Assembly: GCA_045655185.1 (NCBI GenBank)
Contig: JAZOOS010000034.1
Location: 84,744 to 148,743, forward strand
Direction of reading: 5' to 3'
Length of the DNA stretch: 64,000 bases
From: Eubacteriales bacterium
GTDB taxonomy: Bacteria; Bacillota; Clostridia; Oscillospirales; CAG-272
This document shows, in pieces, positions 3,789 to 13,533 of this stretch. Each line of letters starts with the position of its first letter. Within the stretch, counting starts at the first letter, position 1. A model generated the notes under the pieces. It was given only the letters and a program-made list of their open reading frames with translations, was not told the origin of the DNA and made no database searches. A program made the translations under genes and the position numbers.

Positions 3789-4682
3789 ATGGAAACGACA
3801 AAAAGAGTAAAATATTACAGACACAAGATCGAAAACCTTCTGCGCATATCGAAGATCGTCACCATTCATTATTTTGAATTTGATAAAAATTTTTCCTCGG
3901 AGGGGGAAACGCACAATTTCTGGGAAATGGTGTACGCCGATAGCGGTGAAGTGATTTGCCTGGCAGACGACAAGACCATCGTTTTAAGGGAGGGGGAAGC
4001 GGTCTTTCATCGCCCCGGGGAATTTCACCGCCTTTCCTCGAACGGAAAATCTGCGCCTAACGTTTTCGTTGCTTCGTTTGAATGTATGTCGGAATCGATG
4101 CGCTTTTTTGAAAAGCGGCGGATGAAGATCCCCAAAGCGCTTCGAAAATACATTTATGGGATCTATGAGGAGGCAAGTGCTACCTTCCAGATCCCCTTAA
4201 GTGACCCGTTCTCCAAGAAGATGGAGCTCTTACCAAGCCCTGCGCTTGGTGGCATGCAAATGTTAAAAAATCAGCTGGAAATGCTTTTGATCGCCTTGAT
4301 GAGAAGCGAAAGCGGAAAGGATACCGAAACGCGCTTTCTTCGCTTTGACGAGGTGGGGGATTCGATCGCCTCGCGCATCCTTGCGGTACTGGAGGAAAAT
4401 CTTACCCGTGGACTGTCGGTTGACGAGATCTGCGAGGGAATCACGTACAGTCGCTCATATATTTTCAAGCAATTCAAGGCTGCTACCGGTAAAACCATCG
4501 CCGATTGCTATAACCGTATGAAGATCGAATACGCGCGCCGCCTGATCCGCGAAAACAAGCTGAGCTTTTCCGAGATCGCCGAGCTTTTGCATTTCGATTC
4601 TTCCAATTATTTTTGTAAAACCTTTAAGCGGTATACAGGTGTTACCCCGAAGGATTACCGCGCAAGGTACCGTAAAGAATAA
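3789..4682 (+). CDS. AraC-family transcriptional regulator (cupin sensor + HTH)
   Basis: The ORF track begins at TTG 3771; ATG 3789 is preferred. The C-terminal AraC HTH reads ...SNYFCKTFKRYTGVTPKDYR. The gene is divergent from the sugar module. Confidence 0.85.
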   Translation: METTKRVKYYRHKIENLLRISKIVTIHYFEFDKNFSSEGETHNFWEMVYADSGEVICLADDKTIVLREGEAVFHRPGEFHRLSSNGKSAPNVFVASFECMSESMRFFEKRRMKIPKALRKYIYGIYEEASATFQIPLSDPFSKKMELLPSPALGGMQMLKNQLEMLLIALMRSESGKDTETRFLRFDEVGDSIASRILAVLEENLTRGLSVDEICEGITYSRSYIFKQFKAATGKTIADCYNRMKIEYARRLIRENKLSFSEIAELLHFDSSNYFCKTFKRYTGVTPKDYRARYRKE

Positions 4683-4973: not shown

Positions 4974-5531
4974 TCATTTATTTTCCGCTTCTTCTTTTTT
5001 CAGCTGCTCAAGCAACTTGGAAAGGGGGCCTGCCAAGCGGGGGTCGGGCGTATTCGTTTTGCAATTGCAGGGGCCGTCGTTCAGGTTCTTTCCGCAACGG
5101 GGGCAAAGCCCCTTACAATCGGTTTGACATAGGATCTTAGACGGGAAATGAAGCTCGAGCGTGTCAGAGATCAACTCGTTCATATCCAAAAAGCCGTCTT
5201 CGGTCACCAAATACTCGTCTAACGCCTCTTCGTCAATATCCGCGGCCTCTTTCGGTGTAACGATCGCGCGCTCGACCGTAAAGGAGAGCGTATCGTTTAC
5301 CTCGGAAAGGCAACGGGCGCAGGAAGCGCTGTACGCCGCCGAAAGGGTAAGCGTAAGATGAATGTAGCCCGCGTTGTTCACGATCTCGCCGTTTATGGCA
5401 AGCGGGGCGGAGAAGTCTACTTCATAAAGGGGGCTTAACGAATTTTCTTCTTCCTTTTTTCTTTCCAGCGTGAAGGAAAGGGGAAGAGTGCGGATCTCTC
5501 CCGCCAGAAGCGAACGAAGGTCAATTTTCAT
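4974..5531 (-). CDS. yceD: YceD/DUF177-family protein (ribosome-associated, upstream of rpmF)
   Basis: 185-aa acidic ORF with the C-terminal Cys cluster CQTDCKGLCPRCGKNLNDGPCNC and conserved synteny with rpmF. Confidence 0.8.
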   Translation of the reverse strand: MKIDLRSLLAGEIRTLPLSFTLERKKEEENSLSPLYEVDFSAPLAINGEIVNNAGYIHLTLTLSAAYSASCARCLSEVNDTLSFTVERAIVTPKEAADIDEEALDEYLVTEDGFLDMNELISDTLELHFPSKILCQTDCKGLCPRCGKNLNDGPCNCKTNTPDPRLAGPLSKLLEQLKKEEAENK

Positions 5532-5760: not shown

Positions 5761-6384
5761 ATGAAGATCGCCGAAAAAATAATCAAGGGACTTATTTTGC
5801 TTTTGATCTTTTCGATCATTGGCTTTGTTATCTTTCGTATATGGCTCTCTTCCTATTATCCAAAGGAAGCAAGAGGCTTGATCTTTACCGAGAGCTTGAC
5901 GGAATACTATGAAGAGCGGGGGGGCGTGGACGCAAAGACCCAAGCGCTTCGTTTTGATTACGATGATTCGAAGGAGGGGTACTTCTTCGCGGGTGAATTG
6001 GTCGTTGTGCCAGAGGCGGGGGCTTTGCAGATCAGCGTTCGCTATAACGACAGTACGGTCGATGCTCTTCGTGAAAAATATCCCGATAGCTTTTCGGGGG
6101 AGGGGGAAGCTCCCTTTGAATTCTGCTTGGTCGGCACCCCGCCTGAGGAAGGGGCAAGCGGCCCCTCTTATCGCCCTGTCGAAAGTAAGCCCTCGCGTTT
6201 TCTGATGTATAACTATGAACGGCTTTGCTTTGACGGCGTTGATTTTACCGATATGCCTTGGCTGCGTATCGAGGTCTATCTGCCCGGGGAAGAAAAGGCG
6301 ATCTGTACGCTTCTCGTCTATGAAAACCATGCGGAGTATAACGCCTTTTCGTCCTATTCCGTAAAAAGATCGGAGATGCCGTGA
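5761..6384 (+). CDS. Hypothetical membrane-anchored protein (one N-terminal TM helix)
   Basis: 207-aa ORF with SD AAAGGGGA upstream and the hydrophobic segment LILLLIFSIIGFVIF. The antisense 202-aa ORF has no SD. Confidence 0.7.
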   Translation: MKIAEKIIKGLILLLIFSIIGFVIFRIWLSSYYPKEARGLIFTESLTEYYEERGGVDAKTQALRFDYDDSKEGYFFAGELVVVPEAGALQISVRYNDSTVDALREKYPDSFSGEGEAPFEFCLVGTPPEEGASGPSYRPVESKPSRFLMYNYERLCFDGVDFTDMPWLRIEVYLPGEEKAICTLLVYENHAEYNAFSSYSVKRSEMP

Positions 6385-8792: not shown

Positions 8793-9773
8793 ATGGATAG
8801 CAATAAAAGACCCGATAGCATGGTAAGAATTACGACCAAGGCCTTGGCCGACGCGTTTATTGAAGAGCAGGTTGCCGCCCTTCGCGCGCAGATCGGCGAT
8901 AAAAAGGTTCTGCTCGCTCTTTCGGGCGGGGTCGATTCCTCGGTCGTTGCCGCGCTGCTTATCAAGGCCGTCGGCCGTCAGCTCGTCAGCGTGCACGTCA
9001 ATCACGGCTTGATGAGAAAGGGCGAGAGCGAGGCGGTCATCGAAGTATTCCAAAATCAGTTGAACGCTAATCTCGTTTACGTCGATGCGACCGACCGTTT
9101 CTTGGATCTTTTGGCGGGTGTCGAAGAGCCCGAGCGTAAGCGCAAGATCATCGGCGGCGAGTTTATCAAGGTCTTTGACGAAGAGGCCAGAAAGCTCCAA
9201 GGCATCGAATTCTTGGCTCAGGGAACCATTTACCCCGATATTCTGGAAAGCAAGGGCGTGAAGGCGCACCATAACGTCGGCGGTCTGCCCGAGGATATGA
9301 AGTTTGAGCTGGTTGAGCCGGTTAAGCTTCTTTATAAAGATGAGGTTCGTGTCGTCGGCGAGGCTCTTGGTCTGCCGCACGCGATGGTCTACCGTCAGCC
9401 GTTCCCCGGCCCGGGTCTCGGTGTTCGTTGCCTCGGAGCCATCACGCGTGACCGTTTGGCCGCCCTTCGCGAAGCCGACGCCATTCTGCGTGAAGAATTC
9501 GATAAATGCGGTCTTGCCGAGCACGTATGGCAGTATTTCATCGCCGTGCCCGACTTTAAGAGCGTGGGCGTCCGTAATGACAAGCGCTACGAGGGCTGGC
9601 CTGCCATCATCCGCGCCGTCAATACGACCGACGCGATGAGCGCCACCATCGAGGAGATCCCCTACGAGGTCCTTCACCGCATCACCGACCGTATCACAAA
9701 CGAGGTCGAGGGCATCAACCGCGTCCTCTACGACCTTACCCCGAAGCCGATCGGCACGATCGAGTGGGAATGA
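8793..9773 (+). CDS. guaA: GMP synthase ATP-pyrophosphatase/dimerisation part only (subunit-B-like; no glutaminase domain)
   Basis: ATG 8793 has SD GGGAGG upstream. The translation has the PP-loop LSGGVDSSV and the canonical GuaA C-terminus ...GTIEWE. No GATase domain is present in this ORF or immediately upstream. Confidence 0.85.
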   Translation: MDSNKRPDSMVRITTKALADAFIEEQVAALRAQIGDKKVLLALSGGVDSSVVAALLIKAVGRQLVSVHVNHGLMRKGESEAVIEVFQNQLNANLVYVDATDRFLDLLAGVEEPERKRKIIGGEFIKVFDEEARKLQGIEFLAQGTIYPDILESKGVKAHHNVGGLPEDMKFELVEPVKLLYKDEVRVVGEALGLPHAMVYRQPFPGPGLGVRCLGAITRDRLAALREADAILREEFDKCGLAEHVWQYFIAVPDFKSVGVRNDKRYEGWPAIIRAVNTTDAMSATIEEIPYEVLHRITDRITNEVEGINRVLYDLTPKPIGTIEWE

Positions 9774-9774
9774 A

Positions 9775-9800
9775 AAAATGCCCGAAAGGGCATTTTTTCA
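9775..9800. terminator. Bidirectional terminator after guaA-like gene
   Basis: Hairpin ATGCCC-gaaa-GGGCAT flanked by A6 and T6. Confidence 0.75.
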
Positions 9801-9950
9801 GTTATGATCGCCTGCGGCGAGTTATGAGTTATGATACGCTTCGCGTAGTTATGATGTACCTTCGGCACAGTTTGAAGTAACATTGCGATCATATCATAAC
9901 GAGTGCGAAGCACTCTCATAACATTTGGCGTAGCCAAATTCATAATCTTG
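9800..9950. repeat. Array of GTTATGA / TCATAAC heptamers interleaved with GC-rich mini-hairpins
   Basis: Forward copies start at 9801, 9821, 9828 and 9848. Reverse copies are at 9894-9900, 9916-9922 and 9940-9946 (TCATAAT). Hairpins lie at 9809-9819, 9836-9846, 9856-9868, 9901-9915 and 9923-9939. Confidence 0.8.
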
Positions 9951-9954
9951 ATAT

Positions 9955-9996
9955 AAAAAATGCCTTCTTCATAGTTTTGAAGAAGGCATTTTTTGC
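9955..9996. terminator. Strong bidirectional terminator
   Basis: Hairpin AATGCCTTCTTCA-tagtt-TGAAGAAGGCATT flanked by A6 and T6. Confidence 0.8.
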
Positions 9997-10083
9997 TGCT
10001 TTCGTTTATCGAAAAATTTTTTTAAGGGACCCAAGGTTTAAAGGTGAACGAAGGCCACAAGCCTTTCGACACAACGATGGTTT

Positions 10084-10302
10084 TTATCTGTTTTGGTTGT
10101 TCTGATTGCTCTGATTGTACTGATTGTTCTGGCTATTCTTGTTATTCTGGCTATTCTTGTTATTCTGGCTGTTCTGGCTGTTCTGACTGTTCTGGTTGTT
10201 CTGATTGTTCTGATTGTTCTGGTTGTTCTGGTTGTACTGGTTATTCTGGCTGCTCTGGCGATTCTGATTGTTCTGGTTATTCTGATTGTTTTGGTTGTTC
10301 AT
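10084..10302 (-). CDS. Putative 72-aa Asn/Gln-repeat micro-protein (N36 Q21 S8 K2 R2 Y2 M1)
   Basis: Canonical ATG with SD GAAGGGA 9 nt upstream and a TAA stop. A candidate promoter lies at 10391-10420 and a terminator at 9955-9996. The commonest repeat variant is synonymous only in this frame. Confidence 0.45.
   Translation of the reverse strand: MNNQNNQNNQNNQNRQSSQNNQYNQNNQNNQNNQNNQNSQNSQNSQNNKNSQNNKNSQNNQYNQSNQNNQNR
10090..10296. repeat. Imperfect 9-bp tandem repeat (about 23 units of CTG-RTT-GYT as read on the + strand)
   Basis: The periodicity is read directly. Three + frames and one - frame stay open across the tract. Confidence 0.9.
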
Positions 10303-10390
10303 AATAAAATCCCTTCTTAATTATTAGTGGCAAGTGTAGTTTTGCCCCTTTTCGGATAAACTATGCATGAAAAATCAGGTGTTTCATTTT

Positions 10391-10420
10391 GCTTTTGTTG
10401 AATATAAAATAAAAAGAAAA
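10391..10420 (-). promoter_or_regulatory. Candidate promoter TTTACA-N18-TATATT for the N/Q-repeat gene
   Basis: On the minus strand, the -35 is at 10420-10415 and the -10 at 10396-10391. Confidence 0.35.
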
Positions 10421-10427
10421 AATATGT

Positions 10428-10470
10428 AAAAAGACCCCGGTTCATCAAAAGGATGAAACGGGATCTTTTT
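10428..10470 (-). terminator. Terminator after the creatininase-family gene
   Basis: Imperfect hairpin GACCCCGGTTCAT/ATGAAACGGGATC with flanking A/T runs, directly 3' of the stop at 10490. Confidence 0.6.
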
Positions 10471-10489: not shown

Positions 10490-11227
10490 TTACACGATGA
10501 CCGTTCTAAGCCATTCCAGCGTGCAGTTTACCATGTGCTTACCGGTTTCTACGCTGGCTTCCTTGGCGCTTTCGGCAAACCATTCGGTGTTGCGCTCGCA
10601 ACGGCTGAGGTCTACCAACTCGGGATAGGTTCCCATCATAAGGCTGGTCTCCCATTTTCCCGCATGGTCAAAGCCACCGCACTTGATCTGCGCGTCTGCG
10701 CCGATGAGGGGAATGACCTTGATGTAAGAGAAGGGATCGTCCTCGCTGCCCATATCCTCGTAATAGGAGGCGTAGGCGTCGCTGCCCCACCAGCCCTTTC
10801 CAAGCTTTTCTTCCATGTATTCCATGGTTACCTTCTTGGCGGCCTTGTGGCAAGCGATGGTCATAGGCATAAGACCCGCGCCCTCGGTCTGATGATGAGC
10901 CACGAGATAGATATTCTTATGGCCCGCATAGATCATAGACTTGAGTATGTAGTACAGATAGTCTACGTAAGCATCCTCGTCTACGTGGAAGTGGCTGGGC
11001 TTGGGTGCGCATACGGCATACGATGCAACCCCGTACCAGATAGGAGGGCAAACGACGATTTCCTTCTCCTTTTCCAGCTCTCGAAGGCATCCGGTGATTA
11101 CAAGGGTATCGGTTCCGCAAGAGGCATGGCGGGCGTGGTATTCAAGGGTACCGATCGGAATGATGAAGGGAACCTTTCTGTCCACCGCGTCTTGGATCTC
11201 GTCATATAACATTTCAAGCATTTGCAT
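10490..11227 (-). CDS. Creatininase-family amidohydrolase
   Basis: Start moved to ATG 11227 (SD AGGAG 9 nt upstream). Family motifs are PIGTLEYHARH...GTD and FDHAGKWETS. Confidence 0.75.
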   Translation of the reverse strand: MQMLEMLYDEIQDAVDRKVPFIIPIGTLEYHARHASCGTDTLVITGCLRELEKEKEIVVCPPIWYGVASYAVCAPKPSHFHVDEDAYVDYLYYILKSMIYAGHKNIYLVAHHQTEGAGLMPMTIACHKAAKKVTMEYMEEKLGKGWWGSDAYASYYEDMGSEDDPFSYIKVIPLIGADAQIKCGGFDHAGKWETSLMMGTYPELVDLSRCERNTEWFAESAKEASVETGKHMVNCTLEWLRTVIV

Positions 11228-11429: not shown

Positions 11430-12194
11430 ATGAACCGTTTACAAGACAAAGTGGCCATCATCACCGGTGGTAATTCCGGGGTAGGCGCGGCAACCGCCGT
11501 TAAGTTTGCCGCCGAGGGCGCCAAGGTCGTTATCACCGCGCGCCGTGAAGCCCCGCTTTTAGAGGTTGCCGAAAAGATCCGCGCGGCGGGTGGAGAGGTT
11601 CTTCCCGTTGTCAGCGATATCTCTAAGGCAGAGGATGCCAAAAAGGTTCTTTCAGAAACCCTTAAAGCCTTTGGAAAGGTCGATATTCTGGTCAATAACG
11701 CCGGTGTTCTTGATGGCGGTCTTAAAGCGATCGACAGCTTTACCGACGAGGATATGAACCGCGTGATCGACATCAATACCAAGGGTACGATGTGCATGAT
11801 GCGCGAGATCACCGCCGAAATGGCTAAAACCGGCTACGGCTCGATCGTAAACGTAGCGTCGGTTGCCGGTGTTATGGGCTGCGGCGGCGCCGCTTATGTC
11901 GCTTCGAAGGCGGCGGTCATCGGTATCACCCGTCACACCGCGCTTCGCTTCGTTGGCACGAACGTTCGTTGCAACGCCATCTGCCCCGGCACGATCGTGA
12001 CCCCGATGGTTGCCGATATGAACCCTGCCAACCTCGATATGAATATCTTTGGCCAGATGATGAAGCACAACGACCTCAAAGTACAGCCCTGCATGCCCGA
12101 TGATGTGGCCAATATGCTTCTGTTCTTCGCTTCCGACGAATCGCGCGCCATCACCGGCCAGACCATCGTGACCGATTTCGGCTCTACTCTGTAA
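11430..12194 (+). CDS. Classical short-chain dehydrogenase/reductase (SDR)
   Basis: 254-aa ORF with TGGNSGVGAA, NNAG and YVASK motifs, and SD AGGAGG upstream. Confidence 0.85.
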   Translation: MNRLQDKVAIITGGNSGVGAATAVKFAAEGAKVVITARREAPLLEVAEKIRAAGGEVLPVVSDISKAEDAKKVLSETLKAFGKVDILVNNAGVLDGGLKAIDSFTDEDMNRVIDINTKGTMCMMREITAEMAKTGYGSIVNVASVAGVMGCGGAAYVASKAAVIGITRHTALRFVGTNVRCNAICPGTIVTPMVADMNPANLDMNIFGQMMKHNDLKVQPCMPDDVANMLLFFASDESRAITGQTIVTDFGSTL

Positions 12195-12696: not shown

Positions 12697-13533
12697 ATGA
12701 AGAACGTATGTGTTATTACCGGTGGCGGTAGCGGTATGGGCCTTGCGGCCGCGAAATGTATGCCGAAGGAAAAGGTTCTCGTTATCTCGGGCAGAACCGT
12801 AGAGAAGCTGCAAAAGGCGGTTGACGAATTGAAGGAGCTTGGCTTTGAGGCGTATGCCTTTGCATGCGATACCTCGAACCGTGAAAGCGTTAAGGCGCTG
12901 GCCGAATACGCGGCATCTCTCGGCGAGATCAAGAATGTCATTAACGCTGCGGGTATTTCCCCCGCGATGGGCAAGGCGGGCGATCAAGAAAAGATCCTTC
13001 GTATCAACGCCCTCGGCACGGTTTATGTCAATCAGGAGTTTTCGAAGAAGATGAACGCGGGTAGCGTTATCTGCGATATTTCCTCGAATTCGGCTTACGC
13101 GCTTCCCGGGTTTATTCTTCCCAAGAAGGCGTATCCCTTGGCCGAAACCGATGAAGAAGCGTTTCTTGCCAAGCTTATCAAGCGTTCGAATATGGCCAGA
13201 AACGATTACGAAAAGAACGGCTTTGCCTACGGTCTTTCTAAGAATTTCGTTTGCTGGTATGCGGCGAAAAGCGCCTTTGATCTTGGACCGAAGGGCATCC
13301 GCGTTGTATCCCTGAGCCCCGGGCTTATTGCGACCGATATGGGCAAAATGGAAGAAGAGCACGGCGGATATCTGATCGGCTTCTCCTGTGAGGGACGTAT
13401 GGGTACCCCCGAGGAGCTTGGCTTTGCGATCGCGACGGTCGCGGATGAGCGCAACGGATATCTTGCGGGCGTCGATATTCTTTGTGACGGCGGCAGCACG
13501 AGAGGGCAGAAGGAATTTAAAAAGAAAAAATAA
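12697..13533 (+). CDS. SDR-family oxidoreductase (second, divergent)
   Basis: 278-aa ORF with TGGGSGMGLAAAK, NAAG and YGLSK motifs, and SD TAGGAG upstream. Confidence 0.8.
   Translation: MKNVCVITGGGSGMGLAAAKCMPKEKVLVISGRTVEKLQKAVDELKELGFEAYAFACDTSNRESVKALAEYAASLGEIKNVINAAGISPAMGKAGDQEKILRINALGTVYVNQEFSKKMNAGSVICDISSNSAYALPGFILPKKAYPLAETDEEAFLAKLIKRSNMARNDYEKNGFAYGLSKNFVCWYAAKSAFDLGPKGIRVVSLSPGLIATDMGKMEEEHGGYLIGFSCEGRMGTPEELGFAIATVADERNGYLAGVDILCDGGSTRGQKEFKKKK

Follow-up and report, generated by a model that had tools for sequence, protein, structure and literature searches.

A 9-bp tandem repeat in a Clostridia chromosome probably forms the body of a young asparagine/glutamine microprotein gene

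When a tandem repeat keeps several reading frames open at once, is any of them a gene? This question is raised by an array of imperfect 9-bp units in a 64,000-nucleotide stretch of DNA from a Eubacteriales bacterium (NCBI GenBank assembly GCA_045655185.1, contig JAZOOS010000034.1, positions 84,744 to 148,743 of the forward strand; the whole stretch is referred to here as the window). On the minus strand, the array can be read as a 72-amino-acid (aa) peptide made almost entirely of asparagine and glutamine (the NQ peptide). A preliminary description of the locus had pointed to this peptide and to signals around it. Comparison with related loci suggests that the repeat is, on balance, probably the body of a real, lineage-restricted, and very young monocistronic microprotein gene on the minus strand. 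Such a unit would consist of its own promoter region, a Shine-Dalgarno (SD) sequence, an ATG, ~15 to 26 in-frame 9-bp units (N-N/S-Q), a TAA, a 90-nt 3' untranslated region (UTR), and its own terminator. The gene was probably born, and is probably still changing, by gain and loss of repeat units, and the cassette appears to be confined to a single uncultured Oscillospiraceae genus of the ruminant gut, in which a few species carry it.

The array is the strongest tandem repeat of the 64-kb window by a wide margin (Table 1). Tandem Repeats Finder reported 23.6 copies with 78% matches, 0% indels, and a score of 207, in agreement with the ~23 units counted previously. The array includes a recent 18-bp duplication (AATAACAAGAATAGCCAG x2), and the pattern (AAYAAYCAR)x4 occurs twice in the window and in none of 100 shuffles of it. 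Taken 9 nt at a time from the codon after the ATG, the array spells N-N/S-Q throughout. The predicted product of the open reading frame (ORF), MNNQNNQNNQNNQNRQSSQNNQYNQNNQNNQNNQNNQNSQNSQNSQNNKNSQNNKNSQNNQYNQSNQNNQNR, is of the form M(NNQ)n and contains 36 N, 21 Q, 8 S, 2 R, 2 Y, 2 K, and 1 M, in precise agreement with the preliminary description; N and Q together make up 79% of the residues (57/72). Its predicted tryptic peptides are MNNQNNQNNQNNQNR, NSQNNK, and NSQNNQYNQSNQNNQNR. As had been noted, four frames stay open along the array (minus NNQ, minus TTR, plus hydrophobic, and plus Cys/Ser/Gly); the remaining two of the six are closed. Within the unit, variation is greatest at the third base of each Asn codon (C/T, in 7/23 and 8/23 units); next comes the middle base of the second Asn codon, where Asn becomes Ser (7/23 units). 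In the minus NNQ frame, the C/T differences are synonymous, and in the plus Cys frame they replace Gly with Asp, which bears out the earlier reading of the commonest difference between units.

We compared the locus with two sets of relatives. Eighty syntenic loci from GTDB species representatives, all ruminant-gut Oscillospiraceae or Faecousia-like metagenome-assembled genomes (MAGs), were fetched through the creatininase-family protein encoded beside the array. Three closer relatives (loci L202 to L204) were reached through homologs of 97 to 98% identity to GuaA, the product of the other flanking gene, and then through their contigs. Short N/Q ORFs with the same flanks, which the preliminary description had suggested seeking in relatives, were found at L202 and L203. 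Because flank identity to the window is ~88%, these loci belong to species other than the organism of the window. The L202 ORF product is MNNNQNNQNNQNYQSNQNRQNNQNSQYNQSNQNSQNNQNNQNSNQNR, and that of L203 begins MNNQNNQ and ends QYNQSNQNNQNR. Repeat units number ~15, 23, and 26 per species. These copy-number differences are between species; same-species contigs found through the SDR neighbor end short of the locus. The cassette is absent from L204, and neither an N/Q-rich ORF nor similarity to the cassette flanks was detected at any of the 80 more distant syntenic loci.

In many of those 80 species, the convergent guaA and creatininase-family genes lie just 60 to 90 bp apart. In the window, the array sits between them in a 716-bp low-GC spacer, within ordinary Clostridia chromosomal DNA that also carries aldolase, ruvABC, ECF transporter genes, a dcw cluster, secA, and recD2. 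Elsewhere, the spacer holds other cargo: a small membrane ORF in L023, a large membrane-protein-like candidate ORF and a 23S_rRNA_IVP gene in L003, and a GDSL lipase gene together with the NQ gene in L203. Since this cargo is unrelated in different species, the guaA-creatininase spacer is an insertion hot spot.

Within the spacer, the NQ ORF is accompanied by the signals of a complete transcription unit (Table 1). An SD sequence, GAAGGGA, is present as first described, but lies 7 rather than 9 nt before the ATG. Likewise, a sigma-70-like promoter is present, although at coordinates that overlap only partially with the 10391-10420 originally given. Its -35 element is conserved in all three species and overlaps the U-tail of the creatininase-gene terminator; for the -10 element, L202 has TAATAT and L203 the weaker TGTATG. 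The strong terminator previously predicted ~90 nt downstream was recovered as a hairpin with a U-run (9994-9955, -22.5 kcal/mol, z = -6.1), and the same hairpin occurs in L202 and L203. In total, the spacer contains three terminators that combine a strong hairpin with a U-run: one after guaA (9771-9800), one after the creatininase-family gene (10470-10428), and the hairpin at 9994-9955. The second insulates the NQ unit from read-through, and the third can serve the small ORF only. This three-terminator layout indicates that the ORF is arranged as an insulated monocistronic unit.

Table 1. Features of the NQ locus and its orthologous loci (window coordinates, except in the last three rows, where ORF coordinates are those of the locus named)
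Feature	Coordinates	Strand	Remarks
guaA, ATP-pyrophosphatase part of GMP synthase	8793-9773	+	
NQ-unit intrinsic terminator	9949..9994	-	17-bp stem and U-run, 90 nt past stop, bidirectional shape
3' UTR of NQ unit	9995..10083	-	1-bp interspecies indel directly after stop codon
Asn/Gln-repeat ORF, 72 aa	10084..10302	-	ATG 10302-10300, TAA 10086-10084; intact orthologous ORFs, codon fit
9-bp imperfect tandem repeat	10089..10300		Consensus TGTTCTGGT on +, AACAACCAG on -
SD sequence GAAGGGA	10310..10316	-	7 nt before ATG; kept in 3/3 species; AGAAAGGA in L202
Candidate forespore (sigma-F/G type) promoter TGCATA-N17-CAAAACTA	10337..10367	-	~35 nt before ATG
Sigma-70-like promoter TTTACA-18-TATATT	10401..10430	-	10/12 matches
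Terminator of upstream creatininase-family gene	10428..10470	-	-23.1 kcal/mol, z = -5.5
Creatininase-family gene	10490-11227	-	
L202 (GCA_054290045.1)	ORF 4194..4337		47 aa; cassette at same site; flank DNA ~88% identical to window
L203 (GCA_052840725.1)	ORF 5085..5330		81 aa; cassette at same site; flank DNA ~88% identical to window
L204 (GCA_045588145.1)			No ORF; window 9773-10430 missing, 75-bp spacer; flank DNA ~85% identical

Is the minus frame maintained? In the preliminary description, homologous loci with a broken minus frame were to count against the peptide. The coding interpretation withstands this check: the frame is intact in L202 and L203, and the ORF lengths (219 nt in the window, 144 in L202, and 246 in L203) all differ by multiples of 3. 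Common to the three loci are the ATG, the SD sequence, in-frame stops a few codons upstream, a C-terminal NQNR-TAA, and the terminator. The L202 ORF contains two 3-nt insertions (NNNQ and NSNQ); as these are not multiples of 9, the extra codons are not explicable by slippage of the 9-bp unit. In the flanking UTRs, we counted 8 indels in ~345 aligned columns, 7 of them not multiples of 3, and a 1-bp indel sits directly 3' of the stop codon. At this density, ~4 frame-breaking indels would be expected inside the ORF, and none was observed.

Substitutions follow a similar pattern. NNQ is the most nonsense-prone of the four open frames because CAG to TAG is a transition. When divergence was simulated at the level of the flanks, an intact start with no premature stop was retained at a frequency of 0.07 to 0.14 for the window versus L202 and 0.25 to 0.37 for the window versus L203; the hydrophobic plus frame remained open in 79% of simulations. 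CAG to TAG was never seen, though the adjacent base, synonymous in the NNQ frame, varies in 8/23 units of the window. Among A-to-G transitions in Asn codons, those to Ser are common (24 Ser over the three ORFs), and Asp appears once in 200 residues. The three NQ peptides contain no aliphatic and nearly no acidic residues. Synonymous codon usage also fits best in the NNQ frame (+0.06 log2 per codon versus -0.13 to -0.67 in the other frames), with an AAC:AAT ratio of 61:39 in the ORF and 65:35 in the genes of the window.

Several observations weigh against a maintained gene. Codon differences between the window and L203 are 7 synonymous versus 13 nonsynonymous; for the window versus L202 they are 7 and 9, in an ambiguous repeat alignment. 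Across the three ORFs, neither an excess of synonymous change nor position-specific conservation at aligned codons was found. The three orthologs are few and are not independent samples. Four frames are open largely through the composition of the unit, 9-bp slippage keeps the frame automatically, and homogenization or turnover of repeats can make the array effectively younger than its flanks; slippage and turnover together mean that the neutral simulations overstate significance. Gene callers disagree as well: the NQ frame was called in L202 (47 aa), and the antisense hydrophobic frame was called in L203 (5046..5348, 100 aa, VNEGPRLFDATMILSVLVV...). Finally, the case for a gene is drawn from sequence, with no homolog, domain, or structure to anchor a function, and any role in self-assembly or as a reserve is suggested by composition. 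These limits suggest that any selected feature is the open frame and an uncharged polar composition rather than the exact sequence. Low-complexity disordered regions usually conserve composition rather than a particular sequence. Selection on the NQ gene would accordingly act to keep the frame open and the peptide rich in N, Q, S, and Y, with few R or K.

The main alternative is a neutral minisatellite in a fast-changing cargo spacer, in which the ORF, the ATG, and the SD-like sequence would be by-products of an A/C-rich 9-bp unit that slips without disturbing any frame, and no functional product would be encoded. We regard this explanation as unlikely. It draws on the unit composition, which could by itself hold four of the six frames open; on a cassette that is dispensable, being missing from L204, a close relative, as well as from the 80 species that are more distant; and on the lack of residue-level conservation in a spacer whose cargo varies among species. 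However, it does not account for an ATG, SD, stop, and dedicated strong terminator kept across ~12 to 20% flank divergence. Nor does it predict that both array indels that are not multiples of 9 are 3 nt long, whereas 7/8 flank indels are frame breaking; that the most nonsense-prone frame is open in 3/3 species; or that transitions to Asp (seen once) and to stop are missing while the equivalent Ser and synonymous ones are frequent.

A second alternative keeps the unit and drops the peptide: the transcript would work as an unstructured CA/A-rich small RNA, for example as a sponge for an RNA-binding protein, with the ORF incidental or translated on the side. A free-standing unit with a promoter region and its own terminator suits this explanation, as do the many repeated AAYAAYCAG motifs and an exceptional lack of structure (minimum free energy, -0.7 kcal/mol over the 219 nt of the ORF; z = +2 versus shuffles). 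Such a lack of structure is also in keeping with a translated message, though not with a structured RNA. Rfam returned no family match, only subthreshold terminator-like matches, and no cognate binding protein or target is known. An RNA function would leave unexplained why the ATG, SD, and stop fall precisely where the array begins and ends, and why the indels are 3 nt long; we consider it quite improbable.

A functional product of the plus strand is a good deal more doubtful still. The product would be either a hydrophobic (V/L/I/A)n peptide, resembling a type I toxin, or a Cys/Ser/Gly-repeat peptide. Both plus frames are open in 3/3 species, a GTG is conserved upstream of the array, and an annotation pipeline picked the hydrophobic frame in L203 (100 aa). 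However, plus frames are hard to close by mutation, such that their openness says little. Owing to a 1-bp indel, the GTG opens into the Cys frame at two of the loci (window and L202) but into the hydrophobic frame at the third (L203). The stretch from the GTG to the array shows nonsynonymous differences among species, and no SD sequence is present. The sole plus-strand promoter-like site near the array (9948-9975) overlaps the 9955-9994 hairpin, and its -10 element is not kept in L202 or L203. Synonymous codon fit is poor in both frames (-0.13 and -0.46 per codon). Least credible of all is a regulatory leader peptide that would sense charged Asn/Gln-tRNA (amide-nitrogen status) by ribosome stalling: 57/72 codons specify Asn or Gln and the neighboring guaA encodes a glutamine-dependent enzyme, but no co-oriented gene lies downstream, the strong terminator 90 nt past the stop is followed by convergent guaA, a lipase gene separates the cassette from guaA in L203, and known leader peptides are far shorter than 47 to 81 codons.

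To place the putative microprotein, the predicted peptides were searched against sequence, domain, and structure collections. The NQ peptides matched no Pfam or NCBIfam model, even at E <= 1-10, and no PDB entry. No record matched the 72-aa peptide exactly, and the same was true of the guaA, acyltransferase, and creatininase-family products of the window (several starts). A word-indexed protein search returned 4519 candidates, none at E <= 1e-3. A phmmer search of 1.84 billion representative proteins gave 14 matches, all to proteins of 463 to 3351 aa, with no small homolog among them; the two that were inspected (P0125 and P0126) are collagen-like GxQ repeat proteins and were rejected as homologs. 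The called products of the L202 and L203 elements are absent from a collection of ~15 billion proteins. At the DNA level, a metagenome scan with a 20-mer from the 5' UTR gave four chance matches only, and phage BLAST gave no match. Plasmid BLAST gave one match, on a Bacillus plasmid, within a PEQ-repeat protein read in another frame, which we attribute to chance. The pattern (AAYAAYCAR)x4 was found in 115 stretches of viral contigs, many in giant-virus MAGs, and was uninformative. By eye, the 9-mer is unlike the DnaA-box consensus, and a DnaA-box or iteron function was set aside on this comparison, with no scan run. No N/Q-only bacterial microprotein was found described in the literature, which accords with the earlier remark that no characterized bacterial equivalent was known.

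If the peptide is made, as we suppose, it is probably intrinsically disordered. A single-sequence AlphaFold2 model (mean predicted local distance difference test score, 51; predicted template modeling score, 0.17) contains no secondary structure and is compatible with disorder. Judged from its composition, the peptide would probably act through self-association of its N/Q tract in a polar-zipper, amyloid-like, or gel-like assembly. N/Q-rich prion-like sequences have been catalogued in bacteria, gut Firmicutes included, and many of them are hypothetical and repetitive (PMC6400439, PMC12322145, PMC4703818). The NQ peptide resembles bacterial candidate prion domains (e.g., that of Clostridium botulinum Rho; predicted by PLAAC/PAPA) in its extreme N/Q content with interspersed S and Y, its few charged or aliphatic residues, its predicted disorder, and its occurrence in gut Firmicutes. 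By composition, a PLAAC-type threshold (>=~60 residues that are N/Q-rich with few charged or hydrophobic residues) would include the 72-aa peptide (57 N+Q, 8 S, 2 Y, and 4 charged) and similarly the 81-aa L203 peptide; that of L202 is only 47 aa long. In contrast to those domains, the NQ tract is the whole protein (47 to 81 aa) rather than a domain on a functional module; it is far purer (79% N+Q), is built on a strict 9-bp repeat, occurs in few species, and is known here as a predicted sequence. The yeast Sup35 N-domain, with its GNNQQNY steric-zipper segment, belongs to a large eukaryotic translation factor. The motifs NNQYNQ and QNNQYNQSNQ of the NQ peptide are close to that segment, a compositional analogy without homology that supports a possible polar-zipper or amyloid propensity.

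Two other classes of repetitive or codon-biased loci were compared. Like phase-variable contingency loci, the NQ gene would have a tandem repeat inside its coding region and a copy number that changes over evolutionary time. The preliminary description had listed the array as such a length-variable locus; repeat number does differ between species, but an imperfect 9-bp unit changes length rather than frame, and no frameshift switching on and off is possible. Attenuator leader peptides likewise come from short ORFs in which one or two amino acids account for most of the codons. In contrast to them, the NQ ORF is much longer, has no downstream regulated gene, and ends in a terminator with no evident antiterminator alternative. 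The NQ gene is thus neither a frame-switching contingency locus nor an attenuator leader.

A candidate promoter closer to the ATG suggests a possible setting for expression. From the 38 sigma-F/sigma-G promoters that have been mapped in C. difficile (PMC3789822, Table S6), we derived a weight matrix of two blocks. With this C. difficile-derived matrix, the site TGCATA-N17-CAAAACTA scored 15.9 bits and ranked 7 of 127,920 window positions. In the alignment with L202 and L203, it is the best-conserved block of the NQ 5' region; L202 has an identical site and L203 a weaker one (CCAAACTA). When the upstream 130 nt were shuffled 2000 times, 72 of the shuffles attained the score of the window site (p ~0.036). 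Other top matches in the window do not stand ahead of plausible spore genes, indicating low specificity. Such high-scoring matches occur at 4637 (-), 60238 (-), and 59868 (+) and are probably false positives; one of them, TGTATA-16-CAAAAATA, scores 21 bits and lies antisense within the 3' end of an AraC-family gene. The only sporulation-related proteins encoded in the window are SpoVD-like and SpoVE/FtsW-like, both below NCBIfam cut-offs; no unambiguous spo gene was found in the window, and no motif of alpha/beta-type SASPs (small, acid-soluble proteins of spores) in the 813 kb of sequence scanned. Forespore expression of the NQ unit is therefore a lead suggested by this site rather than a result.

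Again judged from composition, the peptide might be a reserve or matrix rich in amide nitrogen, and the forespore is one conceivable place for it. The gamma-type SASP SspE of Bacillales is a Q/N-rich repeat protein that serves as an amino acid reserve. The NQ unit is similarly small, internally repetitive, Gln/Asn-rich, and monocistronic with its own terminator, and the window has a candidate forespore-type promoter. The two differ in that NQ peptides match no SASP model in Pfam or NCBIfam and lack a GPR cleavage motif; GPR protease cleaves at a Glu-containing, E-F/I-A-S-E-F-like motif, and the NQ peptides are without E, F, I, and A. Gamma-type SASPs are not known from Clostridia. We give little credence to a de novo-born poly-amide (N/Q) microprotein of the forespore or another dormant state that would self-assemble, in amyloid-like or gel-like form, into an amide-nitrogen-rich reserve or matrix. 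On that reading, a peptide built wholly from the 9-bp repeat would do the work that gamma-type SASPs do in Bacillales and Gln-rich storage proteins do in seeds, with no relation to either in sequence.

If the ORF is translated, its product would be among the purest natural N/Q polypeptides of a bacterium, and a free-standing one. It would offer a minimal model for how prokaryotes tolerate or use prion-like, amyloid-prone sequences. It would also represent a clear case of gene birth by short-tandem-repeat expansion, in which sister species display an empty site and alleles of 47, 72, and 81 aa. If it is not translated, the locus is a mere minisatellite in a variable spacer and of little interest. 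The locus also exposes an annotation problem, in that the same element is called in opposite frames and its peptides are missing from ~15 billion sequences.

Additional observations were made on the genes that flank the NQ unit. The creatininase-family protein is highly conserved (84 to 97% aa identity across >80 species), and its gene adjoins two SDR dehydrogenase genes (11430-12194 [+] and 12697-13533 [+]) and a gene for a PsiE-like membrane protein. Creatininase-family and SDR neighbors might suggest a ribosomally synthesized and post-translationally modified peptide of the mycofactocin type; this link was rejected, as >80 species conserve those genes and lack the peptide, and there is no radical-SAM gene; an MftA-like peptide is also absent. 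On the other side, the GMP synthase gene encodes only the 326-aa ATP-pyrophosphatase/dimerization part (PF00958 and PP-loop), and neither a glutamine amidotransferase domain nor an adjacent subunit gene is found beside it. This arrangement suggests a split two-subunit GMP synthase, as in archaea.

Between guaA and the NQ terminator, positions 9800-9945 (+) carry an array of short hairpins with cUUCGg and GCGAAGC-type loops, spaced by AGTTATGA/TCATAAC motifs. Its counterparts lie at 4820-4945 in L203 and 6049-6206 (reverse strand) in L003, and the array is ~85 to 90% conserved even in a distant species. In L003, it forms the 5' upstream region of a PF05635 gene (23S rRNA intervening-sequence protein, a four-helix bundle); that gene is not in the window, where the hairpin array alone remains, beside the NQ terminator. 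One of the hairpins exhibits compensatory pair changes (TGCACC..GGTGCA versus TGTGCC..GGCACA), and the array may be a structured leader RNA or an element resembling repetitive extragenic palindromes.

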